DNA of 32,000 nucleotides from Candidatus Omnitrophota bacterium (lineage in GTDB: Bacteria > Omnitrophota > Gorgyraeia > 2-01-FULL-45-10). The DNA lies in NCBI GenBank assembly GCA_023818895.1, contig JAMWCX010000001.1, forward strand, positions 149,789-181,788, in the 5' to 3' direction. This document shows, piece by piece, positions 1 to 21,917 of this stretch (positions are counted from its first letter, which is position 1; each line of letters begins with the position of its first letter). A program made the position numbers and the translations under genes. The notes below the pieces were generated by a model, which was not told the DNA's origin, ran no database searches, and saw only the letters and a list, made by a program, of their open reading frames with translations.

Positions 1-127
1 CCCCTTTTCATCCGATGCGCATATCGATATCTGTAACTTTTATTACTTATTACGCCCTTCTATTCCGCACCCTCCTATATCCCATTGCGATGATCGCTCC
101 TACGAGCCCCACGACCGTCGCCGGCTC
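1..127. repeat. 127-nt perfect repeat (partner 1795-1921) covering the PEP-CTERM tail, stop codon and 3' flank of two different genes
   Basis: Window positions 1-127 read identically to 1795-1921 (ccccttttcatccgatgcgcatatcg...gtcgccggctc). The two sequences diverge immediately upstream in both genes. Confidence 0.9.
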
Positions 128-1129
128 CGGAACAGGTTCTCCTTCGAGCCCGCTTCCCAACTTGATATAGTACCTACCGTTATAAGTCCATGAATCTCCA
201 ATATCATAGCCGGTGTCTCCGGGAAGGGTGCCGGAGAGGTAGCGCCAGGTGACATTGTCTATCGCCACTTCTCCAGAGCCTGCAACGTAAAGGTCAGTCA
301 ACTGCTTTATCTGGCTTGTGGTGTAGTTTAAATCTAAATCAGGAATAGCCGTAGTAATATGCTCAAAATCCTCAATACCTTTTCCAGCCATTCCTAAGTT
401 ATAGATAGCCGCAACTTCGTTCGCATCCAATGCTCTATTCCATATAGCAACGTCGTCAACAGTGCCATCAAAACCGTAATTTTGGCGGCCAATCTTAAAT
501 CCACCCACCCACCAATCATGTGTGGAATAATTAAAAGTGGCTGAATCTGTTTCAATTAAGCCGTTTGGCCCATAAATATATGTTTTCTTATCTGGTTTAT
601 TAAAGGTTAAGGCAGTAAAATACCAAGTATCTGCGCTCCAACTGGTTTGAGTGCTTAATAGATCGTTATGCGTATAAGGATATGAATTGGAATAATGATT
701 CAATTTGCCATCACCATAATAATTAAGCGACATATTTACAGTACTATATAAAAACAGGCCTATGCCGCCTGTCTGCGAAGATGAATCAATAGTTACATCC
801 GGCTTAAACCAAAGGGTAACGGTATAAGTTGATGAATAGCTTTGTCCGCCAAGCGCCTGTGTAATATAGCTGTTATTGGGAACTTCAATATAAGAACTGT
901 TTCCTTCTCCTGTGAAGTTATATGCCTGTCCGATTTTGCCTGTAACCACGCTTGCGTTATTTACCGAACCAACCTGCGAATGGCCGGTAGAATCGCTAGC
1001 ATCGCCGTCGAGCTTCCAATAGGTCATTAGCGAGTTCTCGTAGGCAGCATGAGCTCTTGTAGCGCAGAATGCACTTATAACAAGTACAAGTATAAGAACC
1101 ACTGATCGTAAATTTGTAGATATTTTCAT
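50..1129 (-). CDS. Secreted LamG/concanavalin-A-like lectin-fold protein with PEP-CTERM sorting signal
   Basis: 359-aa ORF with a signal peptide (MKISTNLRSVVLILVLVISAFCATRAHA). LamG-type motifs are present (YWKLDGDASDSTGH near the N-terminus, DDVAIWNRAL near the end of the fold). The C-terminus PVPEPATVVGLVGAIIAMGYRRVRNRRA gives the PEP motif, a TM helix and a basic tail. The ATG at 1129 is preceded by AAGGTAGG. Confidence 0.85.
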   Translation of the reverse strand: MKISTNLRSVVLILVLVISAFCATRAHAAYENSLMTYWKLDGDASDSTGHSQVGSVNNASVVTGKIGQAYNFTGEGNSSYIEVPNNSYITQALGGQSYSSTYTVTLWFKPDVTIDSSSQTGGIGLFLYSTVNMSLNYYGDGKLNHYSNSYPYTHNDLLSTQTSWSADTWYFTALTFNKPDKKTYIYGPNGLIETDSATFNYSTHDWWVGGFKIGRQNYGFDGTVDDVAIWNRALDANEVAAIYNLGMAGKGIEDFEHITTAIPDLDLNYTTSQIKQLTDLYVAGSGEVAIDNVTWRYLSGTLPGDTGYDIGDSWTYNGRYYIKLGSGLEGEPVPEPATVVGLVGAIIAMGYRRVRNRRA

Positions 1130-1156
1130 GACAACCTACCTTTATATCTGGAAACC

Positions 1157-1190
1157 AAAAATCCCGACCTCCTACTCAGGAAATCGGGAT
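1157..1190 (-). terminator. Intrinsic terminator forming the expression platform of leader copy A
   Basis: The minus strand reads TCCCGATTTCC-TGAGT-AGGAGGTCGGGA followed by TTTTT. The stem is about 11 bp including G-U pairs. It lies between the aptamer and the start codon at 1129. Confidence 0.7.
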
Positions 1191-1196
1191 GCGCAA

Positions 1197-1370
1197 AGCT
1201 TTACGTTAGCTTTAAACGGCAACTGGCTGGCGTGCGATATTCTGCGACGCCCCTATAGCTTTGCTACGGCCTTTAAGTTTTCTTCAGGCCGCAGTCCTGA
1301 GCAATGTCCTAAGTTACATCGACGGACATTGCCGAAGAACGCCCCGCCCTTTCGGGAGGTTTGCGATTAG
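1197..1370 (-). promoter_or_regulatory. GEMM-I (c-di-GMP-I)-like riboswitch leader, copy A, with a 76-nt insertion in the aptamer core
   Basis: The minus strand reads CTAATCGCAAACCTCCCGAAAGGGCGGGGC-[76 nt, 1265-1340]-GCAAAGCTATAGGGGCGTCGCAGAATATCGCACGCCAGCCAGTTGCCGTTTAAAGCTAACGTAAAGCT. It has the same modules as copies B-D, except for the insertion between the first hairpin and GCAAAGC. Confidence 0.6.
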
Positions 1371-1392
1371 TTACTTTCTTTTTTCTACAAAG

Positions 1393-1420
1393 AGTATACC
1401 TGATTCTGATAAATAGTCAA
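1393..1420 (-). promoter_or_regulatory. Sigma70-like promoter for leader A (TTGACT-N16-TATACT)
   Basis: The minus strand reads TTGACT (1420-1415), a 16-nt spacer, then TATACT (1398-1393). It sits about 25 nt upstream of the aptamer. The same architecture occurs at the same relative position in all four copies. Confidence 0.55.
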
Positions 1421-1512
1421 TAAAGAATAACTAACTTTTTTATTTTCAATTCTGCATTACTCATATTTTAAAATGGTGATAGGTATATAAGATTCGATTC
1501 GGCTGCTTGCTA

Positions 1513-1731
1513 CTATTGTAGCTCGATTATTTTGATCCTGGAGGCGTGTCCCTTTGCGATGCGTATCCTGCTCTTGGGAATGCCGAAGTACCCGCTTAAT
1601 GCCGCTATGACCGCCTCGTTGGCCCTGCCCTCTTTGGCTGGCGCATTGACACGGACGACGAACTCGTTATCGCTTATCTTTTCCACGACCTCAGCCTTCG
1701 AATTGGGTTTGACTTTCACGGATATCCGCAT
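1513..1731 (-). CDS. DUF167 / YggU-family small protein
   Basis: 72-aa ORF, MRISVKVKPNSKAEVVEKISDNEFVVRVNAPAKEGRANEAVIAALSGYFGIPKSRIRIAKGHASRIKIIEL. This is the typical YggU/UPF0235 pattern (V.V.P.....v........v.v.ap..G.AN..li..La....v.k..i.i..G..sr.K.v.i). Confidence 0.75.
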   Translation of the reverse strand: MRISVKVKPNSKAEVVEKISDNEFVVRVNAPAKEGRANEAVIAALSGYFGIPKSRIRIAKGHASRIKIIELQ

Positions 1732-2992: not shown

Positions 2993-4071
2993 TTATTTTT
3001 TTCTCCTCAAAGAACGCTTTATTCCAAACAGCGCCAAAGCGCTGAATAAGCCGATTACAGAAGCAGGCTCGGGGACACCGCCTTCCGGTTCTCCCTCCAA
3101 GCCGCTTCCCAGCTTGATGTAATACTTGCCACCTTAGGTCCAGGAATCTCCGATGTTGTAGCCGGTGTCTCCGGGAAGGTTGCCGGAGAGGTAGCGCCAG
3201 GTGATGCCGCCTATCTCCACTGAGCCCGTCTGAGCCGCGTAAAGGTCCGCGAGGGCACCGATGGCGTCTGTGTCATATACGTCCTGGCTGAAACCGAGGG
3301 TGTCCGCCTATCAGGCCTTCGTTGTAGAGGTGCGTTATCTGGGCGGAGGTCAAGGCGCTGCTCCAAACGGATACCTCATCAATCGAGTCGTCCCATGACC
3401 ATCTGCCGCCGGCATTATTGCTTCCTATTTCAAACGGATCCGTTCCCCTGATATCCTGGTTATTCAAAGTATTAGAATTTATTACTGTGCTTCTCTCCGT
3501 ACCATCTATGTATATCTTCAAACCGGTTGGACTGGAGGGATAATTCACGCCATCGTAAGTGCCCATAATGAAGTGCCAGTTTAAATCATCAAGAGAAGTG
3601 TCCGTGGTGATCTCCCTGAGCACGTATTGTCCGTATTGGCCTGTGTAAAGCATAAATACTACAGTTTCATTGTAATAATACATTTCATATCCTCTCAAAT
3701 AATACTTTCCAAGCAGCGCCCTTTCTCCTGTGGTAGCCGGGTTTGTGGTCTTAAACCACCCCCCCTATGCTGAAGGCATTATTGTAATTGAATGTCAGAT
3801 TGGATTTATTACCGACCTGAATATCGCTGTTGGTGCCGTTAAAGGCATAAGCGGTTCCTACTTTACCAGATGTGGTCAAAGTCGCATCGACCGTCAGGCT
3901 GTTGCTATCCTTCGAATCTCCCGTAGGACCGAGAGGATTTGCGGAGTCGAATTGCCAATAACTCACAAGGGAAGAATCTTCGTACACGCTTGCGCCAAAC
4001 CCTGTCCCTTCGCCCAGCACAAGGAGCACTATCGTTATTCCGATAATCAGTGACGCGCGTAGAGGTCTCAT
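2993..4071 (-). pseudogene. Decayed LamG/PEP-CTERM paralog (two frameshifts and one nonsense codon)
   Basis: Three ORF fragments in different frames (3751-4071, 3273-3698, 2993-about 3300) are collinear with the intact paralog at 18295-19359. There is a frameshift at a G7 run (plus-strand C7 at 3759-3765). An 11-nt deletion relative to the paralog lies at about 3303/3304. An in-frame TAA at 3134-3136 replaces the Tyr of SWTYNGRYYIKLGSG. The PEP-CTERM tail (VPEPASVIGLFSALALFGIKRSLRRKK) is still readable. Confidence 0.8.
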
Positions 4072-7000
4072 TTTAGCATTCTCGTTCTCCTGATCCTCCT
4101 CCACCCTACTATAATAAAAGCTCCCATAATCCCCACAACCGTCGCCGGCTCAGGGATTTCGCCGCCCGTCCCATAATTAAGAAATACATCCGTTCCACTC
4201 TTGGACATGCTCCATCCGGTAGCTGGTTGCCCTCCGCTAAACTGCAGCGTGAAATCATTCCAAGTCGGGATGCTGCCGGCGCTTATCACTATAAAGCTTG
4301 ACCCAATCTGGGGTAAGAAATTATCAAGATAACTGATCTCGAGGATAGCGCCGGGGTTGACGGAGAGCATGCCCGTTACATTTATCCAGTCCCATCCGGG
4401 ATCGGCGCCTTTTCCACCTATGATATCGGAATTTATCTCCCAGAGATAGATGCTGTTCTCATCGAAGGTAAGATTGGTAAATGTCTGTGTTCCAGGAGAA
4501 TCGCCCGGCGAAAGAATACCGCCAGCCGGAATCGTTACCGCAGTATCTAATTCTCCGACACCTTTCAACATACCCCCCATCATAGTGAATGAGGGCCCTG
4601 AGAACGTCCCTGCTAGATCAAAAGTCCCGCCATCCATGATAAAATCCCCTGTGCCGGAGATGTCCGTGGCGTGGAGTATACCACCGTTCATATCAAAAGT
4701 GCCATTGTCACCAATTACCATCTCCCCCACCGTCAATATCTTCTGATCCTCGAGCGTATATGAGGCCGTTTCAGTGCTCGTTCCGATCTTTAACGAAGCA
4801 AACTCAAGATCGCTTTGCGTATTTAGCGCGTAGTCTGTTCCGCGTATGTCGATCGTGCCGTTGGAACCATCAAGGGTGTTCGCATAGAGAGTGCCTCCTA
4901 ATATTCTGTAGGTTCCGCCTGCGCCTATTATCATCGTAACGATAGGGTTATCTTCGGTGCCGACCTGCGCATCGGCGCTCTGTACAAATGTTCCTGTGCC
5001 GCCACTTCCGATATTGATAGTATTGGCGGTAAGCGACCCGTATACACGAAAACTACCAACCGCGGAATCTCCAATATAGAGCGTAGCCAAATCGATATTA
5101 GAGCCGCTTCCGCTAAGGAGCAGGCCGCCATTAATTGAGATACTGCCACCGGAGATACTGCCGTCAGATATTGATAATACGCCGCCGTTAAGGTCGTAGT
5201 TACTGTTCAGATTCATGACGCCGTTCGGCAGTGAGACACTATAGTTATTCTGTATTACGTCTCTATTCACATTTATATAATTAGCGGCGATGTTGCCAGG
5301 AACCGTGAAAGAACAGGATCCGTAGCTTAAGGTAAGCGTATCGAGGTACGCATTATCAAAAGTTAAGGCAATGCCGCTAGTATCGTTTAGCGTACCCTGT
5401 CGCGTGGAAGATGTATTGATAGTGCCAGCGGCAAGCCAACTGCCAGAAATCGCCAATTCGACGCCGCTGCCGATTGTGATGGTATTGGCGCTTACGCCAT
5501 TGTACAGGGTAAGTGGGCTATTAACATTCAGAGTGTCAACCTTCATCGTGTGTCCTAAAGAAAGAGATCCTCCGTTATATGTATATGTTCCTTGGTTATC
5601 CCCAAAAGGATTTATGCCGCCACCTATACTGACCGAGTGACCGGACTGAATGACTTCGCTACCGATGCCTATTGCCATATTACCCGTGCTTATATCGCAC
5701 GGTACCTCTAAAGTGAGGTTATCGCCGATGGTAAAATTGGCCATATCGCTTATGCGGCCATTTGGTACGCTGATACTGCCACCATTGTAATAGAAGTTGC
5801 TGCCGGAGCTGCCTACAATGCCATTTTGCCCTGATACTGTCAAATCACCGCTCTGGAGATCGTAGTAACCTGCGTTCAGAGTCATATCACCTTCGACTGT
5901 GACGGTATCGTTTTGCGTAAAAGCCCCCTCTATGTACAAATAGGTGGCGTTGATAGACTGATCCGTTTTTTGGTCAAAATATACTCCTGAGCCGATATTA
6001 AATGTGCCGACATCGATGGTGGCGGCGTTCACGCTGGCCGAATTACCTGTAATAGCGAAAGTCCCGCTTCCGCTTATACTGCCCGTGCTCAATGCGCCGG
6101 CGTATAAGGTATAGGTCGAGCCTGACGCTATGCCCAGGGTGTTTTCTATCGTCACATCGTCCTGCTGGGTAAAGCTGCTGACAGTAATTCCATTGCCGAT
6201 GCTCATATTACCAGCCGTGATGGTTTGACCTGAATTTTGTGTAAAACTCACACCCTCGCTGCTTTCGCCCCAGCCAATATTAAGGTTATCAACATCCATA
6301 GTGGTCCACGTGCCAGACATTGTGCCTCCGTCAATATTTAGCGTTCCCGTACCGGGTCCGTTTCCGATTGAGTCGTTTACGGTAAGCACTCCGCCTTGTA
6401 AAGTATATATACCCTCGTAATTTTCCGCCATTCCGATATTGAGCTTATTTATCGTGTTGCTGCCGCCATACTGGATGAACCTCCCATAGGCGCCGAGGCC
6501 TATGTTCTCCGTATCGCCGCTTATGGTTATGCCGGGGCCTATCGCGAGCTCACCGTCATTGATATTACCGACATTCAGCGTTGTGCCGCTAATGGAACCT
6601 CCGGCGATTGTGATATAGGGCGTTGTAGTGTTGACGTTAAATGTGCTTGTGCCCGAACCGCTCGTAACATTTCTCCCGACATATAGAGTGCCTCCGTTGT
6701 AATCATATGTTCCGGATGAGCCTTCATTGACGCCCATGGCGAGGTCGCCGGATACAGTCAGTATTCCCGCCGACTGGGAAATTGTCCCTGTGCCTGAATT
6801 GCCGATGGTCAGGCCGCCGGTTGTTATGCTGATAGTCCCGTCGTAATTAAACTGGCCAGTGTAGCCGGCGCCATCGCCTACGGATAATGAGGATAACTCA
6901 AGCGACGAGCTAAAGGGTATGGTATAGGATCCTGTAGTATCGATGACAAGCCCTCCATAGAGATTAACAGAGGGAGACGCTATTGTAATGCTGGCTCCGG

Positions 7001-7433
7001 ATCCCTGCAGCCGAAGCTCTCCAAAAATATCGAGTCCTTGCGATGAGCAATAAACCTGCGAATTTTTGTTTAAAACGAGATTGTAAGCAGTGCACGACCC
7101 CCACCCATAGCTTGAAAATGCCCCCAATCCATAATTATCTGCGATAGTAATGGTAGTGCCGTTATCTGCGTAAAACTCCCACGGGTATGCCCAGTCTCTA
7201 ATTATAACCGAGGCACTAAACACGGCCATATCATGATAATCATCATAGGGAATTCCATAATCCCAATTGTTAGGATTATCGTAATAAGGGTCTTCGTATG
7301 CATAAAAATGATGCACGCAATGTTCATCATCTCCCCACGCGGGCGAAGAAGCGACACAGGCTATAATCGCGCATACCACAAGTCTCGCCATTAAATTATC
7401 TAGATGCACCTTTTGACTAATAAACCTTTTCAT
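4068..7433 (-). CDS. Large (1121 aa) PEP-CTERM surface protein with Gly/Thr/Asn-rich parallel beta-helix (autotransporter-passenger-like) repeats
   Basis: It has a signal peptide (ARLVVCAIIACVASSPAWG). About 900 aa are irregular G-x-(L/I)-x-(I/V) repeats (e.g. GGLTIGNSGTGTISQSAGILTVSGDL, GGVLTVNDSIGNGPGTGTLNIDGGT). The C-terminus is EIPEPATVVGIMGAFIIVGWRRIRRTRMLK. The ATG lies 4 nt after the stop of the upstream gene, and its stop overlaps the next start (ATGA at 4068-4071). Confidence 0.85.
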   Translation of the reverse strand: MKRFISQKVHLDNLMARLVVCAIIACVASSPAWGDDEHCVHHFYAYEDPYYDNPNNWDYGIPYDDYHDMAVFSASVIIRDWAYPWEFYADNGTTITIADNYGLGAFSSYGWGSCTAYNLVLNKNSQVYCSSQGLDIFGELRLQGSGASITIASPSVNLYGGLVIDTTGSYTIPFSSSLELSSLSVGDGAGYTGQFNYDGTISITTGGLTIGNSGTGTISQSAGILTVSGDLAMGVNEGSSGTYDYNGGTLYVGRNVTSGSGTSTFNVNTTTPYITIAGGSISGTTLNVGNINDGELAIGPGITISGDTENIGLGAYGRFIQYGGSNTINKLNIGMAENYEGIYTLQGGVLTVNDSIGNGPGTGTLNIDGGTMSGTWTTMDVDNLNIGWGESSEGVSFTQNSGQTITAGNMSIGNGITVSSFTQQDDVTIENTLGIASGSTYTLYAGALSTGSISGSGTFAITGNSASVNAATIDVGTFNIGSGVYFDQKTDQSINATYLYIEGAFTQNDTVTVEGDMTLNAGYYDLQSGDLTVSGQNGIVGSSGSNFYYNGGSISVPNGRISDMANFTIGDNLTLEVPCDISTGNMAIGIGSEVIQSGHSVSIGGGINPFGDNQGTYTYNGGSLSLGHTMKVDTLNVNSPLTLYNGVSANTITIGSGVELAISGSWLAAGTINTSSTRQGTLNDTSGIALTFDNAYLDTLTLSYGSCSFTVPGNIAANYINVNRDVIQNNYSVSLPNGVMNLNSNYDLNGGVLSISDGSISGGSISINGGLLLSGSGSNIDLATLYIGDSAVGSFRVYGSLTANTINIGSGGTGTFVQSADAQVGTEDNPIVTMIIGAGGTYRILGGTLYANTLDGSNGTIDIRGTDYALNTQSDLEFASLKIGTSTETASYTLEDQKILTVGEMVIGDNGTFDMNGGILHATDISGTGDFIMDGGTFDLAGTFSGPSFTMMGGMLKGVGELDTAVTIPAGGILSPGDSPGTQTFTNLTFDENSIYLWEINSDIIGGKGADPGWDWINVTGMLSVNPGAILEISYLDNFLPQIGSSFIVISAGSIPTWNDFTLQFSGGQPATGWSMSKSGTDVFLNYGTGGEIPEPATVVGIMGAFIIVGWRRIRRTRMLK

Positions 7434-7437
7434 GGGT

Positions 7438-8616
7438 TCACCATTTGTTATTTATCGCGCTTCTCCTTATCCATCCGCGCCGTTTGCCAAAAAATATCAT
7501 GGCCGTAATAGCCATTCCAAAGACCGTCGCCGGATCGGGGGCGCCTTTTTCACCTAATCCGCCTCCCAGATAAATATACCGCTGGCCTGTTGACATGTTT
7601 ATAAAGATATCACCAGGGTTGTGACCTGTCCAGATAGGGTCATCATGGGGTATATACTCCCAAGTAACATCGTCTATAGTTACTTCACCTTCCTGTGCCA
7701 GATAAAGATCGGATAACTGTTTTAATTCGCTGCTACTATACCCCAGATTAAAAAGTGTATTCATACCTATAAGGAGATTTTCATACTTCTCAACGCCGAG
7801 GTCGTAGATCATCTTTATCTCGTTTGAATCAAGCGCGCGATTCCACACGGCAGTATCGTCCATATAGGTGCCCGGGGAAAGAGGGTAATCCTCCGTACTT
7901 CCCGGCTCATAGTACCACCTAACGCCGCCCAAGAGGAACGGAACCCCGGTGGCGCTTAACGACCACTCGCCTATTACCGTATTGGAAACGGCGGTGGGAT
8001 TGCCATTCACGTATATGGATGCCACCTCGTCATAATGATTTACCTGGGATACAATATTCCACGTTATGGCTACATGCGACCATTTGGGTTCTTGTCCATA
8101 AACGGACATCGGTACCTGGACTGAGTTATTCCAATAATAGCTATTATTATCGCCAACAAATGGATACAAAACCGAGTAACCGGAATATGAGCTGTTTTGC
8201 ATAAAAAGGGCGGTCGCCCCAAGCCCGCCGGGGCCATCAAAGCTATTAACATCAGCGTAACCGGCCAGACCTACTCCATCTGACTCCGTCGGGATTTTCA
8301 ACCATACAGAGAAGGTGCCTGCGGTAGGCAGGACGGGCATTTCCTGGCTTACACCATTATAGGGCATTACCGCATTGCCGAATTTTCCCACACCCCACGA
8401 GGTATTGCCGGTATTATTAAAAGTCACGTTAGTATGCCCCGTTGAATCGGCGGCGGTATCGCCGCTTGTTTCATCGAACTTCCAGTAATAAAGCAGTGAA
8501 GTTTCGTAAGAGGCAAAAATAGGCGGGGCGACGCCCGCAATCACGATACATATGATTATGCCTATAAATATTTTCGTCCTCATCGCCCTCACCCCTCTCT
8601 CGAGTTTTGTAATCAT
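7438..8616 (-). CDS. Secreted LamG-like lectin-fold protein with a degenerate PEP-CTERM-like tail (PDP instead of PEP)
   Basis: 392 aa containing YWKFDETSGDTAADSTGH, DDTAVWNRALDSNEIKMIYDLG and the shared pre-tail module (LKQLSDLYLAQEGEVTIDDVTWEYI...). The tail is GAPDPATVFGMAITAMIFFGKRRGWIRRSAINNKW. An alternative start MRTKIF at 8583 would give a cleaner signal peptide. Confidence 0.8.
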   Translation of the reverse strand: MITKLERGVRAMRTKIFIGIIICIVIAGVAPPIFASYETSLLYYWKFDETSGDTAADSTGHTNVTFNNTGNTSWGVGKFGNAVMPYNGVSQEMPVLPTAGTFSVWLKIPTESDGVGLAGYADVNSFDGPGGLGATALFMQNSSYSGYSVLYPFVGDNNSYYWNNSVQVPMSVYGQEPKWSHVAITWNIVSQVNHYDEVASIYVNGNPTAVSNTVIGEWSLSATGVPFLLGGVRWYYEPGSTEDYPLSPGTYMDDTAVWNRALDSNEIKMIYDLGVEKYENLLIGMNTLFNLGYSSSELKQLSDLYLAQEGEVTIDDVTWEYIPHDDPIWTGHNPGDIFINMSTGQRYIYLGGGLGEKGAPDPATVFGMAITAMIFFGKRRGWIRRSAINNKW

Positions 8617-8634
8617 TTTAGTTCCCTCTCAAAC

Positions 8635-8666
8635 AAAAATCCCGACCTCCTACTCGGAAATCGGGA
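8635..8666 (-). terminator. Intrinsic terminator forming the expression platform of leader copy B
   Basis: The minus strand reads TCCCGATTTCC-GAGT(A)-GGAGGTCGGGA followed by TTTTTG. It lies about 20 nt upstream of the start codon at 8616. Confidence 0.75.
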
Positions 8667-8727
8667 CGCGTAATCCTTGGCCAGAGGCCAAGGATGGCCG
8701 CACATTTCAAGAGAAATGTGCAAGCCG

Positions 8728-8829
8728 AGCTTTACGTTAGCTTTAAACGGCAACTGGCTGCCCTGACGATTTTTCCGTCGAGGACCCTATAGCTTTGCGT
8801 CCCACCCTTTCGGGAGGTTTGCGATTATA
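8728..8829 (-). promoter_or_regulatory. GEMM-I (c-di-GMP-I)-like riboswitch aptamer plus conserved 3' mini-hairpin, copy B
   Basis: The minus strand reads TATAATCGCAAACCTCCCGAAAGGGTGGGACGCAAAGCTATAGGGTCCTCGACGGAAAAATCGTCAGGGCAGCCAGTTGCCGTTTAAAGCTAACGTAAAGCT. The GCAAACC / GAAA tetraloop hairpin / GGGACGCAAAGC / second hairpin / GUUGCCG order matches the Vc2-type consensus as I remember it. Two extra perfect hairpins (8672-8694 and 8700-8721) separate it from the terminator. Confidence 0.75.
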
Positions 8830-8850
8830 CCACTTCTGTTATCTAAAGCA

Positions 8851-8880
8851 AGTATACCTTATATATATATATAAATGCAA
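8851..8880 (-). promoter_or_regulatory. Sigma70-like promoter for leader B (TTGCAT-N18-TATACT) with a (TA)7 tract in the spacer
   Basis: The minus strand reads TTGCAT (8880-8875), an 18-nt spacer, then TATACT (8856-8851). The position relative to the aptamer matches the other copies. Confidence 0.5.
8860..8873. repeat. (TA)7 dinucleotide microsatellite inside the promoter spacer
   Basis: tatatatatatata was read directly at 8860-8873. The paralogous promoter of copy C has only (TA)4, at 19615-19622. Confidence 0.9.
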
Positions 8881-13510: not shown

Positions 13511-15745
13511 CTATGTTTTTCGCAGGGTCGTAAGTTCCGTTATTATATCGCCCGCCCACTTATAGACATTTTGTTCGGCAACCACTTTTCTCAGATTCTC
13601 CATCCGACGCCTCTTTTCGGGATCTGGCATCTCCACGGCCAATTTTATGCTGTCGGCGAATTCTTCGATCGAATAAGGTTTGATCTGTATGGCTTCAGAC
13701 AGCTCTTTCGCCGCCCCAGTAAAGCGGCTCAATATCAGGGTTCCGTTAAGGTCGTTCTTTGCGGCTATGTATTCCTTGGCGACAAGGTTCATGCCGTCGT
13801 GAAGCGAGCTTACTATGCAGATATCCGCGAGCCTGTAGAACGGCTTTATATCCTCAGGAGAAAAGTGGCGTTTTAAATATATTATAGGCCTCCATTCCTC
13901 GTCCAGGTATTTCCAGTTTATCTTTTCCACAAGCTCGTCAAGCTCCCCTATCAGGTCGTGATAGCGTTTTATGTGCGTCCTGCTTGGGGCGCCCAGCTGG
14001 ACAAAGACGAACTTCTTCCTGTAATCCGGGTATTTTTCCAGGAAACGGTCTATGGCGACCATGCGCTCGGCCAGACCCTTGGTGTAGTCTATCCTGTCGA
14101 CCCCAATCGCCACTATCTTTCCTTCCAGCTCGTAATCCCTGACGATCCTTTCCGATTTTTTTGCGTCGTCTTTATCGATGGAGCCGTTTATGTTTATATC
14201 CACGCTTATAGGGAAAGATCTGACAAAAGTCTCTTTTCCTCCCCGGATCACACTGAATTTTTCCGTATCGATCCGGCACTCCAGGAACCTGTTGGCCGTA
14301 TCGATGAAGTTGTTGCAATGATACTGGACATGAAAGCCTATAAGGTCGCATCCCAGCATGCCGTCCAGGATCTCCGCGTTATAGGGGCATATGGCGAATA
14401 CCTCGGGATTCGGCCAGGGTATATGCCAGAATAGCGCGATAGTGGCGTCAGGCCGCTTGGCTTTTATCATCTGGGGTAAAAGGGTGAAATGGTAGTCCTG
14501 TATAAAAACAAAAGGATTGTTCGCGGGCAGCTCCTCGATAACGCTTTCGGCAAATTTCTGGTTCGCCCTCCTATATATCTGCCAGTCGGACTCCCTGAAC
14601 ATCGGCCTGGTGTGGGTTATGTGGCAAAGCGGCCAGAGCCCTTCGTTAGAGAAACCGTAATAATAGCCGTCCTCCTCCTCTTTAGTGAGCCATACCCTCT
14701 TGAGTATATAGCGGTTATCTTCAGGCGGGACGCCGAGCTTGTTCTTGGAATTCACGAATTTCCTGTCGGCGTTGGCGCTACCGTGGGCTATCCAGGTTCC
14801 TCCGCAGGCGCGCATTATCGGGTCTATGGCCGTTACGACACCGCTGGCAGGACGGACACATGCTGCCCGGCCTGTCGCCTCATTAATGGTATGCAGATAA
14901 GGTTCCCTGTTAGAAACGACGAAGAAAGCGTTCTCCCCCAGTTTGGCCCTGACAAGGTCCCTAAGTCTTGCCTCTGTCCACAGATCTTCCCGCTCCAGGC
15001 GGACCTTAGCCTCCTCGGTTACGGCCTTTCTTGCTATCCGCAGCCCCAGGGCGACCTGTTCTACCTCCCTCGCGAGTTTGCCGAGTTCGCCCTTTTCCTT
15101 TATAGGATGCCTGAGGTCGGTCTCTCCTTTTTGGAATTTCTTGAACAATTCTGTAAGGCGCTCGACCGGATCGGTGAATATACGCCTATGCACCATAATG
15201 GATATTGCCGCGATCAGCATGAGCAGGATGATGAGCGCTATGCTGAGGCTTTTCCATATCTCGGCCAGCTGGGTGAAGACGTACGACGTGTCGTAAAGAA
15301 TCTCTTCCAGCCCGACCGTCTTTCCTTCTTCATCCGGCACAGGAAGCACGTAGCTGTATACCGTGTATTGCTTAAATTTTTCGATGCCTCCCCGGGGCGC
15401 GGCGTCTTTCAGGATGTCTTTGATATAAGGCTTGTCCTTGTCCTTCCATTCGGAGAAGCGGTCCGTGATGGCCAGCATGTTGCCGTCTTTGTCGTAGATG
15501 GCGCATCCCTGCATCCTCTCACGTCTCTGGAATTTTTGGACGAGACGTTCAATGCTGCGCCGGTCATCGCTGATAAGGGCATTGCGCACCGACAATTCCA
15601 GGCTCTCCGCCACGGCCCGCGCCTTCCTTCTGAGCTCATCTAGAAGCTTTGCCTCCTCGTAGCGCACGTGGAAGATGCCGAATATGACGAGGACCATCGT
15701 TACCATGATGAGTATCGGTAGTATAAACAGCATTAGCCTTTTCAT
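13511..15745 (-). CDS. otsA: Trehalose-6-phosphate synthase (GT20) fused to an N-terminal TM / extracytoplasmic sensor / TM / HAMP module
   Basis: 744 aa. Residues 1-about 265 comprise TM1 (LFILPILIMVTMVLVIFGIF), an about 140-aa loop, TM2 (LSIALIILLMLIAAISIMV) and a HAMP-like segment (DPVERLTELFKKFQKG...GELGKLAREVEQVALGL). The GT20 catalytic region follows (FFVVSNREPY...GLWPLCH...FWHIPWP...DGMNLVAKEY). Confidence 0.85.
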   Translation of the reverse strand: MKRLMLFILPILIMVTMVLVIFGIFHVRYEEAKLLDELRRKARAVAESLELSVRNALISDDRRSIERLVQKFQRRERMQGCAIYDKDGNMLAITDRFSEWKDKDKPYIKDILKDAAPRGGIEKFKQYTVYSYVLPVPDEEGKTVGLEEILYDTSYVFTQLAEIWKSLSIALIILLMLIAAISIMVHRRIFTDPVERLTELFKKFQKGETDLRHPIKEKGELGKLAREVEQVALGLRIARKAVTEEAKVRLEREDLWTEARLRDLVRAKLGENAFFVVSNREPYLHTINEATGRAACVRPASGVVTAIDPIMRACGGTWIAHGSANADRKFVNSKNKLGVPPEDNRYILKRVWLTKEEEDGYYYGFSNEGLWPLCHITHTRPMFRESDWQIYRRANQKFAESVIEELPANNPFVFIQDYHFTLLPQMIKAKRPDATIALFWHIPWPNPEVFAICPYNAEILDGMLGCDLIGFHVQYHCNNFIDTANRFLECRIDTEKFSVIRGGKETFVRSFPISVDININGSIDKDDAKKSERIVRDYELEGKIVAIGVDRIDYTKGLAERMVAIDRFLEKYPDYRKKFVFVQLGAPSRTHIKRYHDLIGELDELVEKINWKYLDEEWRPIIYLKRHFSPEDIKPFYRLADICIVSSLHDGMNLVAKEYIAAKNDLNGTLILSRFTGAAKELSEAIQIKPYSIEEFADSIKLAVEMPDPEKRRRMENLRKVVAEQNVYKWAGDIITELTTLRKT

Positions 15746-18294: not shown

Positions 18295-19359
18295 TTACAC
18301 CCTTCTGTTCCGATACCTCCTGTACCCTATCGCAATGACCGCTCCCAATATCCCCACGACCGTCGCCGGCTCTGGAACAGGCTCTCCTTCGAGCCCGCTT
18401 CCCAACTTGATATAGTACCTACCGTTATAAGTCCATGAATCTCCAATATCATAGCCGGTGTCTCCGGGAAGGTTGCCGGAGAGGTAGCGCCAGGTGATGC
18501 CGCCTATCTCCACTGAGCCCGTCTGGGCCGCGTAAAGGTCCGCCAGGGCCCCAATGGCGTCTGTGTCGTATACGTCCTGGCTGAAACCGAGGGTGTTTAT
18601 CACTCCTCCGCCTATCAGGCCTTCGTTATAGAGGTGCGTTATCTGCTCTGATGTTAAAGCGGTGTTCCATATGGCGACTTCGTCGATAAGGCCGTTAAAA
18701 TAAGGCTTACCTTCTTCGGAAGGATAAGCAATATTTACACCAAATGTCCAGTTGCCGCCGTTAGATTGTTTAAAATAGTACCAGTTTTCTCTTAGTTCGG
18801 TATCAGCGGCACCATTAACATAGACAGTCATGACGTTATTTTCATATACAACAGCATACTGGTACCATGTGTTCGCTTCCCAACAGTCTCTTTGGGTAAC
18901 TGCGCTTGTCCAGTAATACCAGTAAGAACGTAGTTGACCCGGCCAATTAGGATGGAAATGACCAAAAATTTGATATTTATTTCCGCTCCATCCGTTGTTA
19001 TTGGTAACAATAGTGATATCTTTTGTTACTGATCTGTCAATTCTTTCATTTGGCCTAAAGAAATACACTACCGTGAAACTCCTATCTGCAGGGCTATCGG
19101 ATAAGACGGGATAAGGAACATTAATATAGCCATTTGTCTCATCAAAGATATAGGCTCCTCCTACTTTTCCTTGGCTTGTCCACGTTGCACCATTTACCAC
19201 GCCATGGTTGGTTCCTATAGAGTCATCGGCGTTTTGATTATCAAAATTCCAGTAGGCTACAGCACCATCATATACCGTCGCCGCATACTCCTCTGCTGCG
19301 TCGAACGCCAAGCACGCGATTATTACTCCGATCATCAGTGACGCGCGTAGAGGTTTCAT
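18295..19359 (-). CDS. Secreted LamG/concanavalin-A-like lectin-fold protein with PEP-CTERM sorting signal
   Basis: 354 aa containing a signal peptide (MKPLRASLMIGVIIACLAF), YWNFDNQNADDSIGTNHG, IDEVAIWNTALTSEQITHLYNEGL and the shared pre-tail module. The C-terminus is PVPEPATVVGILGAVIAIGYRRYRNRRV. The Shine-Dalgarno sequence GAGGTGG precedes the ATG. Confidence 0.85.
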   Translation of the reverse strand: MKPLRASLMIGVIIACLAFDAAEEYAATVYDGAVAYWNFDNQNADDSIGTNHGVVNGATWTSQGKVGGAYIFDETNGYINVPYPVLSDSPADRSFTVVYFFRPNERIDRSVTKDITIVTNNNGWSGNKYQIFGHFHPNWPGQLRSYWYYWTSAVTQRDCWEANTWYQYAVVYENNVMTVYVNGAADTELRENWYYFKQSNGGNWTFGVNIAYPSEEGKPYFNGLIDEVAIWNTALTSEQITHLYNEGLIGGGVINTLGFSQDVYDTDAIGALADLYAAQTGSVEIGGITWRYLSGNLPGDTGYDIGDSWTYNGRYYIKLGSGLEGEPVPEPATVVGILGAVIAIGYRRYRNRRV

Positions 19360-19427: not shown

Positions 19428-19477
19428 TTTTTTAGGCATAGCCTAAAAAAATGTCCCAACCTCCGGAACGATTGGGA
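19428..19477 (-). terminator. Tandem hairpins forming the expression platform of leader copy C
   Basis: The minus strand reads TCCCAATC-GTTCCGGA-GGTTGGGA, then CA and a T7 run. The T7 run is also the 5' arm of a second perfect hairpin, TTTTTTAGGC-TAT-GCCTAAAAAA. The first stem covaries with copies A, B and D (CCCGA/TCGGG becomes CCCAA/TTGGG). Confidence 0.7.
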
Positions 19478-19483
19478 TCGCAA

Positions 19484-19584
19484 AGCGTTACGTTCGCTCT
19501 AACGGCAACTGGCTGCCCTGACGATTTTTCCGTCAAGGACCCTATAGCTTTGCGTCCCACCCTTTCGGGAGGTTTGCGATTATA
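19484..19584 (-). promoter_or_regulatory. GEMM-I (c-di-GMP-I)-like riboswitch aptamer plus 3' mini-hairpin, copy C
   Basis: The minus strand reads TATAATCGCAAACCTCCCGAAAGGGTGGGACGCAAAGCTATAGGGTCCTTGACGGAAAAATCGTCAGGGCAGCCAGTTGCCGTTAGAGCGAACGTAACGCT. The aptamer is nearly identical to copy B. The mini-hairpin stem is AGCG/CGCT instead of AGCT/AGCT. Confidence 0.75.
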
Positions 19585-19605
19585 TCACTTTTCTCATCCA
19601 AATTA

Positions 19606-19719: not shown

Positions 19720-19999
19720 AGTCATATATAAGGTTTATATGGATGAGAAGAATAAGTATGTAAGCATCCCCGAACTTGCCAAGATACTGGGCCTGAGCAG
19801 GATAGCTGTTTTTAAAAAGGTCAAAAAGGGCGTCATTAAGGCGGCCAAGATAGGCAGGAACTACGCTATTCCCAGGTCTTATGTCGACAGCATACTGGGC
19901 AAGACTCTTGCCGTCAGCAGTAAGAAAGAGATCGCTGCCGCCGTAAAGAAGACAGTCAAGGAATACGGGCAGACGCTGAAACTTTTAGGCAGGGAATGA
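19712..19999 (+). CDS. Excisionase-type helix-turn-helix DNA-binding protein, putative antitoxin
   Basis: 95 aa. YVSIPELAKILGLSRIAVFKKVKKGVIKAAKIGRNYAIPRSYVDSIL matches the HTH_17/excisionase pattern. Its stop overlaps the Doc start (ATGA at 19996-19999). Confidence 0.7.
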   Translation: MLKVIYKVYMDEKNKYVSIPELAKILGLSRIAVFKKVKKGVIKAAKIGRNYAIPRSYVDSILGKTLAVSSKKEIAAAVKKTVKEYGQTLKLLGRE

Positions 20000-20418
20000 T
20001 GCAAAGGATCACCGTTAAGGAGGTCGAGTACCTGGCGTTCGTTCTCGCAGGGGAGATAATGTCGTTCAACGAGCCTATCCCCGATTTCAAGACGAGATTT
20101 CCCAATATACTGGAAAGCTGCATAGCCGCGCCTTTCCAGGCCTTCGAAGAAAAGTCCTTCTACCCGGGCCTCATCGACAAGGCGGCGATCCTCTTCTATC
20201 TCATGATCAAGAACCATCCCTTCCAGAACGGCAACAAGCGCATAGCCATGACGACGCTTTTCGTCTTCCTGCACAAGAATAAGAAATGGGTAAGGGTCGA
20301 CGCGCAGGAGCTGTATAATTTCACGATGTGGATAGCGCAGAGCCCGGCCAAGTGTAAAGATGAAACCCTCGCGGCGATCAGGAAATTTCTTGCCGAGCAC
20401 GTGACGGATCTCGGATAG
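19996..20418 (+). CDS. doc: Doc (death-on-curing) / Fic-family toxin
   Basis: 140 aa containing the Doc signature HxFx(N/D)GNKR as NHPFQNGNKRIAMTTLFVFL. It is translationally coupled to the upstream HTH gene. Confidence 0.85.
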   Translation: MMQRITVKEVEYLAFVLAGEIMSFNEPIPDFKTRFPNILESCIAAPFQAFEEKSFYPGLIDKAAILFYLMIKNHPFQNGNKRIAMTTLFVFLHKNKKWVRVDAQELYNFTMWIAQSPAKCKDETLAAIRKFLAEHVTDLG

Positions 20419-20482: not shown

Positions 20483-21736
20483 TTACACCCTTCTGTTCCG
20501 ATACCTCCTGTACCCTATCGCAATGACCGCTACCAATATTCCCACAACCGTCGCCGGCTCGGGGACAGGAGGAGGATCTCCTGCGAGTCCAGGATTCCTT
20601 ATTTCGATATAGTATTTATTTGTCGCGGCGTCATAGAAAGCATGTCCAGGGCTATAAGGCCCACCCGGCAAATTTTCTAAATAGTGCCATGTAATGCCAT
20701 CGCTTGTTTTTACAGAAGCTTCAGGGTCTGCGCTTCTGTATAGAGCGGTTAATGCCTCTAATTCTTCTTCGGTATATTCAAAATGGAGAGCGGATGTTAC
20801 CGCATCGTTGATATAATTATAGAATAGATCAAGATAGTAGATTTCTCTGTCAACTCCGTCTGAAGCATCCCATGCCAAAGCACCATTATAGAAGGAGAGG
20901 GAATAGATCGCATTAGTGCTATTGATTAATTCATTGGTGGTCGATCCTTCCCACAAAAATATCTTATTGGTGCTCGCTTCATTTATCCAGGCAACCATTC
21001 TGTCATAAACAACAGGGCTAAAATCTCTACTGCTATTATTAGTAAGCCGGCGTGTGGTTGTGCCGTCCCAGTAATATATTTCGTTCTCGCCTCCCGAGAC
21101 CCTACTCGCCCACGCTATTGTGCCATTATATAAGGATGGCTCCTCCTCAATAGCGCTGTTGTTAGTTATTCTTTGACTGGAAGTTCCGTTCCAATAATAA
21201 ATCTCGGAACCGTACCCACTACCACTAATATATGCTATTTCGTTATTTCCGAGTGAGGGAGAACTGTCATAGACGCTATTGTTTGTTATCTGCTGTGTCG
21301 TAGATTTGTTCCAATAATAGATCTCATAAGCCCCTGATCCGCCGTGATATGCTATATTGCCATTATATGTCGAAGGGCGGGCTTGGTATATAGAGTCGTT
21401 CGTGAGTTGATGCGTTGAGCCGTCCCAGTAATAAATTTCCAAATCCGTTCCATCGTTGTGTTCCCACGCAATTACTCCACCATGAAAGGAAACTTTCTGG
21501 TCTGACAACGAATCATTCGTTATCCTCTGTGTTGTTGAACCATCCCAATAATATACTTCATTGTTTGCTATCCACGCGATCTCGCCATTATAAACTTTGG
21601 GATCCTGGTCATTATATGAATTATTCGTTATCTGCAAAGGAGTCCATCCAGCATGAGAATTTGCTGCTACGAGCGACAATAGCAGCATTATCGCAAAAAT
21701 AATTAGCCCCTTTAATGTGGCGTGTCTTCTTCCCAT
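20483..21736 (-). CDS. PEP-CTERM-anchored beta-propeller-type protein with about 40-aa EIYYWDG repeats
   Basis: 417 aa with a signal peptide (LIIFAIMLLLSLVAANSHA). There are six clear repeats plus one degenerate repeat of the form ...P.(v/l)y.g.IAW.....e(I/V)YYW(D/N)GsttqriTNnS.... These are followed by the shared pre-tail module (LEALTALYRSADPEASVKTSDGITWHYLENLPGG...YYIEI) and PVPEPATVVGILVAVIAIGYRRYRNRRV. Confidence 0.85.
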   Translation of the reverse strand: MGRRHATLKGLIIFAIMLLLSLVAANSHAGWTPLQITNNSYNDQDPKVYNGEIAWIANNEVYYWDGSTTQRITNDSLSDQKVSFHGGVIAWEHNDGTDLEIYYWDGSTHQLTNDSIYQARPSTYNGNIAYHGGSGAYEIYYWNKSTTQQITNNSVYDSSPSLGNNEIAYISGSGYGSEIYYWNGTSSQRITNNSAIEEEPSLYNGTIAWASRVSGGENEIYYWDGTTTRRLTNNSSRDFSPVVYDRMVAWINEASTNKIFLWEGSTTNELINSTNAIYSLSFYNGALAWDASDGVDREIYYLDLFYNYINDAVTSALHFEYTEEELEALTALYRSADPEASVKTSDGITWHYLENLPGGPYSPGHAFYDAATNKYYIEIRNPGLAGDPPPVPEPATVVGILVAVIAIGYRRYRNRRV

Positions 21737-21752
21737 TTTTCCTACCTCAACT

Positions 21753-21784
21753 AAAAATCCCGACCTCCTACTTGGAAATCGGGA
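21753..21784 (-). terminator. Intrinsic terminator forming the expression platform of leader copy D
   Basis: The minus strand reads TCCCGATTTCC-AAGT(A)-GGAGGTCGGGA followed by TTTTTAG. It ends 17 nt before the start codon at 21736. Confidence 0.75.
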
Positions 21785-21804: not shown

Positions 21805-21900
21805 GAGCTTTACGTTAGCTCTAAACAGCAACTGGCTGGCGTGCTTACGCGACGCCCCTATAGCTTTGCGGCCCGTCCTTTCGGACGGTGTGCGATTATA
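21805..21900 (-). promoter_or_regulatory. GEMM-I (c-di-GMP-I)-like riboswitch aptamer plus 3' mini-hairpin, copy D (most compact)
   Basis: The minus strand reads TATAATCGCACACCGTCCGAAAGGACGGGCCGCAAAGCTATAGGGGCGTCGCGTAAGCACGCCAGCCAGTTGCTGTTTAGAGCTAACGTAAAGCTC. The first hairpin is fully Watson-Crick paired (CCGTCC/GGACGG) through changes compensatory to copy B. The second hairpin is capped by GTAA. Confidence 0.75.
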
Positions 21901-21917
21901 TTCATTTATCTACTTTA

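Follow-up and report, generated by a model that had tools for sequence, protein, structure and literature searches.

Natural pyrimidine-20 variants of the GEMM-I riboswitch aptamer upstream of PEP-CTERM protein genes in an Omnitrophota genome

A 32,000-nucleotide stretch of a Candidatus Omnitrophota bacterium genome (assembly GCA_023818895.1, contig JAMWCX010000001.1, positions 149,789 to 181,788; the window in what follows) contains four leaders, each of which precedes a gene for a secreted protein with a PEP-CTERM sorting signal (...VPEPATVVG...RR) and carries an aptamer of the GEMM-I fold, the fold of the cyclic di-GMP (c-di-GMP) riboswitch c-di-GMP-I (RF01051), in which position 20 is occupied by C. 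The leaders, the aptamers and the genes that follow them all lie on the minus strand. The gene after copy A (50–1129) encodes a 359-amino-acid LamG PEP-CTERM protein; that after copy B (7438–8616) encodes a secreted protein of 392 amino acids with a Pfam Laminin_G_3 match (1.2e-8) and the tail ...PDPATVFG...RR; that after copy C (18295–19359) encodes a 354-amino-acid LamG PEP-CTERM protein identical to the NCBI protein P0001 from a Candidatus Omnitrophica metagenome-assembled genome (MAG); and that after copy D (20483–21736) encodes a 417-amino-acid secreted repeat protein with a PEP-CTERM tail and no Pfam match, so that three of the four first genes carry LamG (Laminin_G_3). Copy B is followed by a second gene (4068–7433), which encodes a 1121-amino-acid secreted repeat protein with the tail ...IPEPATVVG...RR and no Pfam match; it follows the first gene at a distance of 4 nt and, judged from this spacing, is probably in one operon with it.

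The RF01051 covariance model (CM), for which the curated gathering score is 35 bits, was scanned over the whole window and matched at full length at 8746–8833 (aptamer B; 62.9 bits, E = 3e-10), 19501–19588 (aptamer C; 63.9 bits) and 21824–21904 (aptamer D; 54.2 bits). An earlier note on this DNA, made from the letters alone, had placed aptamer B at 8742–8829; this is the same element, and a real one, although its RF01051 limits lie 4 nt further along. Aptamer A (1215–1375) is split by a 77-nt insertion (1264–1340) between C44 and G45, with CUAAUCGCAAACCUCCCGAAAGGGCGGGGC on the 5' side and GCAAAGCUAUAGGGG...CAGCCAGUUGCCG on the 3' side, and because of this insertion it scores 29.5 bits (for 1215–1281), below the gathering score. 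The insertion folds as two hairpins (−34.9 kcal/mol) and has no second occurrence in the window; both an extra domain and a loss of ligand binding are conceivable consequences that it may have. A 3.7-kb contig from another assembly of this organism (GCA_023818765.1, locus L259) is 100% identical to window positions 1–1681 and represents the same locus, and the identical insertion is present there at 342–418.

RF01051 is the best match within its clan for the window copies; RF03167 gives only a 17-bit local match and RF03168 (c-di-GMP-I-UAU) gives no match in the window in the Rfam scan. The two-hairpin architecture, with P2 capped by a GNRA loop, then P3 and the GACGCAAAG junction, is seen in the CM structure lines and in the covariation of P2 across 22 pyrimidine-20 aptamers from this and other genomes. 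The motif AAUCGCAMACC occurs at four sites in the window, against about 1.1 expected by chance, and four sites were reached in none of 100 shuffles. A chance match of the aptamers was considered and is ruled out by these shuffles together with the E values of about 1e-10.

The CM aligns the window sequence AAUCGCAAACC to the consensus AAaGGCAAAcc with a posterior of '*' (≥0.95) at all of these positions, and GUGGUAUAAUCGCAAACC to the consensus uaaugaaAAaGGCAAAcc with '*' throughout. At model position 11 the consensus has an unpaired conserved G directly 5' of a two-pair helix, where the window has C; position 10 is U. Model position 11 corresponds to G20 of Vc2, as follows from the Vc2 numbering (G20 in J1-2; C22, A23 and A25 in P2; a G45–C22 pair; A47–A49 in J2-3; C92 in J3-1; PMC3764141) and from the model of the GGC variant, in which P1 is included and its apex is separated from G21 by six unpaired bases (aaAAAG), like C15–G20 of Vc2. 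The junction of copy B thus reads U19 (8824), C20 (8823), G21 (8822) and C22 (8821), and the C20 equivalents of copies C, D and A are 19578, 21894 and 1365. The equivalent of A47, which in Vc2 intercalates between the ligand bases, is the first A of GCAAAG (8796 in copy B), and that of C92, which in Vc2 forms a Watson–Crick pair with the β guanine of the ligand (Gβ), is at 8750. A47 and C92 are present in the window copies, and the remaining pocket and tertiary-contact bases are canonical. All four copies, as well as the leader of an orthologous gene in another Omnitrophota MAG (L039), have C20, and hence neither the canonical G20 nor the A20 of the GEMM-Ib group. The window copies are therefore pyrimidine-20 variants of natural origin in which A47 and C92 are preserved.

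The earlier note had arrived by eye at U and C for the G19 and G20 positions and had named a CM alignment with G in the G20 column as evidence to the contrary; the alignment places C there and no G, and it also bears out the retained A47 context. In two details the picture is less uniform than had been described: the junction reads AUAAUC in three copies but CUAAUC in the fourth, and the GUUGCCG context of C92, although C92 itself is kept throughout, is GUUGCUG in copy D, where position 93 is U. Copy D also has an A24C/A43C pair. The note had left room for a shift by one nucleotide, in which the G of UCGC would be the true equivalent of G20. We give this alternative almost no credence. In all of the 22 pyrimidine-20 aptamers aligned, the G of the YGC motif (Y, pyrimidine) has C46 as its partner and the C after it has G45, and sliding the partners by one column reduces pairing from 94% to 42–48%; it is this pairing, together with the CM posteriors, that excludes the register shift.

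The pocket triplet of the window copies at positions 20, 47 and 92 is CAC, which is unlike all four that have been described: GAC (c-di-GMP), AAC (c-AMP-GMP, i.e. 3'3'-cGAMP), GGC (RF03167) and UAU (RF03168). The last two belong to the same clan and are pocket variants named by these three positions, as CAC is here. The GGC consensus GACGCGAA has G47, whereas the window has GACGCAAA, and the UAU variant has U20 and U92 in place of the C20 and C92 of the window; the ligands of both families reportedly remained unidentified in Weinberg et al. 2017. With Vc2 (RF01051; PDB entries 3IRW and 3MXH) the window copies share the fold, the GAAA-capped P2, the GCAAAC/GACGCAAAG core, A47 and C92, whereas they have U and C for G19 and G20, J1/2 seems longer (7–9 nt compared with 6 nt), the expression platform consists of an intrinsic terminator preceded by a conserved hairpin, and the host belongs to the Omnitrophota.

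Pyrimidines at position 20 are absent from the samples drawn without regard to this position. Approximately 83 unique metagenomic aptamers among the matches listed, mostly gut and fermenter sequences with gut-type GEMM-I, have roughly 69 G, 14 A and no C or U, a few of these bases having been assigned by eye, and 18 aptamers from viral contigs have 13 G, five A and no pyrimidine; the share of A20 in the unbiased sample is about 17%. Earlier surveys are said to have found a small 'other' fraction (about 1%) at position 20, a figure that is not used as evidence here. A search for pyrimidine-20 (Y20) aptamers in GTDB species genomes, which gives no prevalence and in which about 95 of the 120 stretches listed are chance matches, yielded at least about 25 genuine ones. 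Rfam on 20 Y20 loci gave RF01051 above threshold (40.8–77.5 bits) over the pyrimidine-20 aptamer in 19; the L081 aptamer was assigned to the GGC model and L028 had no match above threshold. The Y20 alignments shown have C or U at model position 11, and A47–A49, having been built into the search pattern, are informative as retained bases for the window copies only.

The carriers span about ten phyla, and at least 20 of the aptamers outside the window score above the Rfam threshold. Besides the window, Omnitrophota MAGs carry such aptamers at L039, where the aptamer (60.7 bits with RF01051) shares AAUCGC and the 3' hairpin with the window copies and controls an orthologous LamG/PEP-CTERM gene, and at L097. 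Other MAG carriers belong to Chloroflexota, Planctomycetota (Pirellulaceae), Nitrospirota, Gemmatimonadota, Fermentibacterota (Aegiribacteria, Sabulitectum), Steroidobacteraceae and Firmicutes/Clostridia, and a carrier in Polyangia (L118), outside the set scanned with Rfam, was recognized from the sequence alone. The isolates are Lysobacter sp. CFH 32150 (L034), Pengzhenrongella frigida and P. phosphoraccumulans (L013 and L067) and Desulfosarcina cetonica (L094), and the genome of P. phosphoraccumulans, with a C20 aptamer, is complete (NZ_CP144210). The genes downstream mostly encode secreted or surface proteins (RTX, MopE/fn3, sortase-like and transglutaminase-like), with one small helix-turn-helix regulator. 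No report or test of natural C20 or U20 variants with C92 was found in the literature searched, which lacked the primary papers of the Strobel, Hammond and Breaker groups.

Across the alignment of 22 Y20 aptamers 94% of the cells pair, double changes in P2 fill 36 cells compared with 11.6 in shuffles, and C92 is invariant. The window paralogues B, C and D all have UAAUC, while their P2 and P3 differ by compensatory changes; the retention of this junction while the helices diverged points to selection on it. As judged from these alignments, the Y20 aptamers are intact and under structural constraint, not decaying, and C20 is a rare, recurrent state, seemingly functional, and not peculiar to the window. 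In the same alignment (A2), GCACACC occurs together with GGGCCGC in four of four cases (copy D at 21824–21904, L015, L027 and L034) and GCAAACC with GGGACGC in 18 of 18, although the search pattern let the variable positions of GCAMACC and GGGMCGC vary independently; the central adenine of the AAA bulge seems to covary with that of GAC, and the two likely form a non-canonical pair.

The retention of C92 and A47 in all copies argues for a ligand with at least one G, and the four paralogous leaders, each of which would control a secreted, exosortase-sorted PEP-CTERM surface protein, are predicted to sense a G-containing 3'3' cyclic dinucleotide. In our preferred reading, towards which the evidence leans somewhat, this is c-di-GMP, read by a possibly protonated C20. 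The roles of C92 and A47 would be those known from Vc2, pairing with Gβ of the ligand and intercalation, respectively; C20 would probably be protonated at N3 and face the other guanine in a C+·G Hoogsteen geometry. A parallel is provided by the G20A mutant of Vc2 (PDB entries 3MUM and 4YB1), which is bispecific, with dissociation constants of 53 nM for c-di-GMP and 120 nM for cGAMP, and in which A20 binds c-di-GMP as A+ with a pKa above 8.3 (PMC6140456). Since the electronegative pocket protonates A20 with so high a pKa, a C+·G Hoogsteen pair is chemically reasonable. The mutant is an engineered one with a purine, whereas the base in the window is a natural pyrimidine, but both have a non-G base at position 20, and the mutant offers a precedent for binding of c-di-GMP through protonation. 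Retained sensing of this ligand would also be favoured by the otherwise canonical pocket and by the gene context, since the LamG/PEP-CTERM proteins of the window and the secreted proteins encoded after other Y20 aptamers are typical of c-di-GMP regulons.

Several considerations weigh against this assignment. Position 20 is the proven selectivity determinant of the fold, and A20G turns a Geobacter cGAMP switch into a c-di-GMP switch (PMC6456294). The conservation of C20 among the diverged paralogues and in a further Omnitrophota genome would also speak for the altered specificity suggested in the note. The Watson–Crick edge of a neutral C, with N4-H as donor and N3 as acceptor, should present the pattern of A20 and not that of G20, so that by chemistry alone C20 should be no worse a partner for the Hoogsteen edge of A than for that of G; the pocket must also adjust, since a pyrimidine is shorter than a purine. 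In the literature searched, no binding data for a natural C20 aptamer were found. Lastly, pairs of nearly identical aptamers with A20 and C20 (L086, L027 and L034) could mean that C20 groups with cGAMP-type A20 or that it serves a distinct input.

These pairs come from five loci at which a second GEMM-I aptamer lies near the C20 one, a tiny sample that was found through the search for C or U at position 20. The partner has A20 in three, namely the tandems L086 (636–717 and 781–862) and L034 (3370–3458 and 3499–3577) and the neighbouring aptamers of L027 (3534–3608 and 5620–5694), and G20 in two, the tandem L050 (4343–4433 and 4509–4599) and L062. In L086 and L027 the paired cores are essentially identical apart from J1/2; in L086 the differences are confined to J1/2 (17–20) and position 91 beside C92, and the flanks have diverged. 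Such pairs are possibly natural two-input arrangements, to judge from their sequences. The tandems L086, L034 and L050 resemble the Desulfobacca acetoxidans cluster, in which near-identical c-di-GMP and cGAMP aptamers occur (PMC9481103), in that closely similar neighbours differ in the pocket base; the published pairs are G20/A20, whereas the four window copies all have C20 and are dispersed singles. Tandems of the same class are also common (347 c-di-GMP-I doublets; PMC9481103), and the G20 partners in L050 and L062 would, by analogy, resemble these.

The pairs also bear on the main alternative, possible but clearly less favoured, in which C20 acts like A20 and the aptamer prefers 3'3'-cGAMP or accepts both cGAMP and c-di-GMP. 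The α adenine of the ligand would then donate N6-H to N3 of C20 and accept N4-H of C20 at N7, while Gβ would pair with C92. That one base at position 20 can set specificity follows from the effects of G20A and A20G; C and A share the amino-donor/ring-nitrogen-acceptor edge, as a matter of chemical inference; an A20 partner in three of five loci exceeds the 17% or so of A20 in the unbiased sample, and in L086 and L027 the A20 and C20 cores hardly differ otherwise. The J1/2 context AAU-N also fits the contact list of Gs1761 (A11, A12, U13 and A14). The window copies share with this group, Geobacter GEMM-Ib (Gs1761 and Gmet_0970; PDB entry 4YAZ), the fold, a non-G base at position 20 and AAU before that base, and the Geobacter switches also regulate extracellular or surface functions through terminators, as the window leaders are predicted to do; in Geobacter, however, the base is A and not C, and cGAMP selectivity and a Hypr-GGDEF source are established there only. 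Moreover, Vc2 G20A binds both ligands and c-di-GMP slightly more tightly, so that A20 alone is no guarantee of cGAMP selectivity, no cGAMP synthase is known from the window's genome, the partner is G20 in L050 and L062, and the count of partners carries the size and bias of its sample.

A different G-containing dinucleotide or a related signal, for example a purine-pyrimidine 3'3' cyclic dinucleotide, with mixed tandems acting as two-input gates, appears improbable. The occurrence of Y20 in about ten phyla in intact and covarying aptamers would agree with it, as would the confinement of the L086 differences to J1/2 and position 91 between diverged flanks, a pattern also seen in the D. acetoxidans cluster, and a smaller base at position 20 should enlarge the α pocket. 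No positive evidence points to a particular ligand of this kind, the differences in J1/2 may be neutral, conservation within the core being lowest there, and same-class tandems are frequent. A broader proposal, which we put forward only tentatively, would make Y20 (CAC and UAC) a further specificity class in about ten phyla that senses 3'3'-cGAMP or another G-containing cyclic dinucleotide and not c-di-GMP, with the mixed tandems (A20 and C20 in a Firmicutes MAG and in Lysobacter, G20 and C20 in Anaerolineales) as two-signal logic gates.

The four leaders share an upstream block, the aptamer, a hairpin (H1) and an intrinsic terminator. The upstream block (8851–8880 in copy B; TTGCAT, an 18-nt spacer and TATACT) is kept in all four and is a putative promoter only, as it was not called by the sigma-70 promoter scan. 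H1 (RAGCK-AACGUAA-MGCU, with an invariant AACGUAA loop) lies directly 3' of every aptamer, including that of L039 (approximately 4466–4481). In copy B it spans 8725–8750 with a core at 8728–8743 (CCG..AGCU-AACGUAA-AGCU..CGG) and extends into the 3' strand of P1, C92–G94 included; the conserved sequence recurs at 19484–19499 in copy C, where a U–A pair is replaced by G–C in a compensatory change, at 21806–21821 in copy D and at 1197–1212 in copy A. An intrinsic terminator lies between the aptamer and the open reading frame (ORF) in all copies: in copy B the terminator scan placed it at 8630–8667, with a 12-bp stem (8639–8667), a 5-nt loop and a U tract ahead of the start codon, and its equivalents lie at 19445–19477 (copy C), 21753–21784 (copy D) and 1157–1189 (copy A), those of copies A and D being homologous to it.

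In the wiring that we consider best supported, binding of the ligand would lock the aptamer core and P1, and the downstream terminator would then decide on read-through. Without ligand the core strand GGGACGCAAAGC would serve as an antiterminator by pairing with the terminator's 5' flank, whereas with ligand bound the terminator would form, which makes the leader an OFF switch. This direction, which like ligand identity and protonation state we infer, is favoured because the 5' half of the terminator finds its best partner in the aptamer core: for the terminator 5' half and its flank, the best upstream partner was the core strand GGGACGCAAAGC in four of the five leaders tested. The platform of copy C (19445–19499) comprises H1, the antiterminator strand GCUUUGCGAUCCCA (19473–19486), which is complementary to the aptamer core at 19547–19562, and the terminator, and its antiterminator duplex (−23.0 kcal/mol) was equalled by one of 300 shuffles. 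The statistics are notable in copy C only. On the opposite side of the balance, the duplex of copy B (−19.1 kcal/mol) was matched by 14% of shuffles, those of copies D and A and L039 were no better than shuffles, and the predicted P1 duplexes are AU-rich, with registers that differ between copies. Three other pairings were considered, namely the 3' strand of H1 with the terminator, the P3 loop GGAAAAAUCG with CGAUUUCC, and the AACGUAA loop with the start region; inspection and duplex tests gave no conserved support for any of them.

The terminator is present in every minimum-free-energy fold, whatever the aptamer does, as would be expected if the C20 copies were weakened or ligand-blind relics and the leaders constitutive attenuators. 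The split of copy A and its score below the Rfam threshold would also suit such a view. We regard it as highly unlikely, given that the other three copies score 54–64 bits with all other core bases intact, that UAAUC and the core are kept in the paralogues while P2 and P3 change in a compensatory manner, and that a second genome has kept an orthologous leader.

In this fold, the switch between c-di-GMP and 3'3'-cGAMP is known to depend on one base, that at position 20, and a natural, conserved C occurs there in the window, with U elsewhere. If specificity is unchanged, as the preferred assignment to c-di-GMP implies, the pocket tolerates a pyrimidine, probably through a protonated C, and position 20 alone would then be unfit for annotating the ligand. 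If specificity has changed, the variants would represent a new sensor class, a ready-made scaffold for biosensors and a way into cyclic-dinucleotide signalling in little-studied phyla, among them Omnitrophota, Chloroflexota, Planctomycetota and Gemmatimonadota. The cultured carriers (Pengzhenrongella, Desulfosarcina cetonica and Lysobacter sp. CFH 32150) make the ligand question directly testable.

Among homologues of the regulated LamG protein, eight loci lack GEMM-I, so that the association of the riboswitch with that family is not a fixed one. The remainder of the window is ordinary chromosome, with genes for trehalose synthesis, a phosphofructokinase, a helicase, a radical-SAM enzyme and a membrane-bound hydrogenase/complex-I-like cluster; no enzymes of cyclic-dinucleotide metabolism, GGDEF and CD-NTase proteins included, are encoded within the 32 kb covered of the 732-kb contig. 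Downstream of the 1121-amino-acid PEP-CTERM gene, a LamG-type gene on the minus strand appears split into 3751–4104, with the signal peptide and N-terminus, and 3273–3698, with the C-terminal part of LamG and a TTG start, and is probably a pseudogene or a frameshift (3273–4104). Window positions 1–127 and 1795–1921 are identical, so that the PEP-CTERM genes 50–1129 and 1844–2932 share their 3' ends and flanking DNA, and the L259 contig switches from one copy of this repeat to the other and looks like an assembly chimera.

A minus-strand gene at 13511–15745 encodes a 744-amino-acid protein in which weak dCache_3 (N-terminal) and HAMP matches are fused to a GT20 trehalose-6-phosphate synthase domain, an unusual sensor-enzyme fusion, and it adjoins genes for a trehalose phosphatase, a TreT-like glycosyltransferase and a DUF5752 protein. 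Between two of the riboswitch-controlled units lies a Fic/DOC-family ORF on the plus strand (19996–20418), which is overlapped by an antisense ORF (region 19879–20418). On an unrelated metagenome contig (L260), reached through a LamG homologue, an AdoCbl-II riboswitch at 3968–4057 lies upstream of a metE-type methionine synthase gene, an ordinary arrangement.

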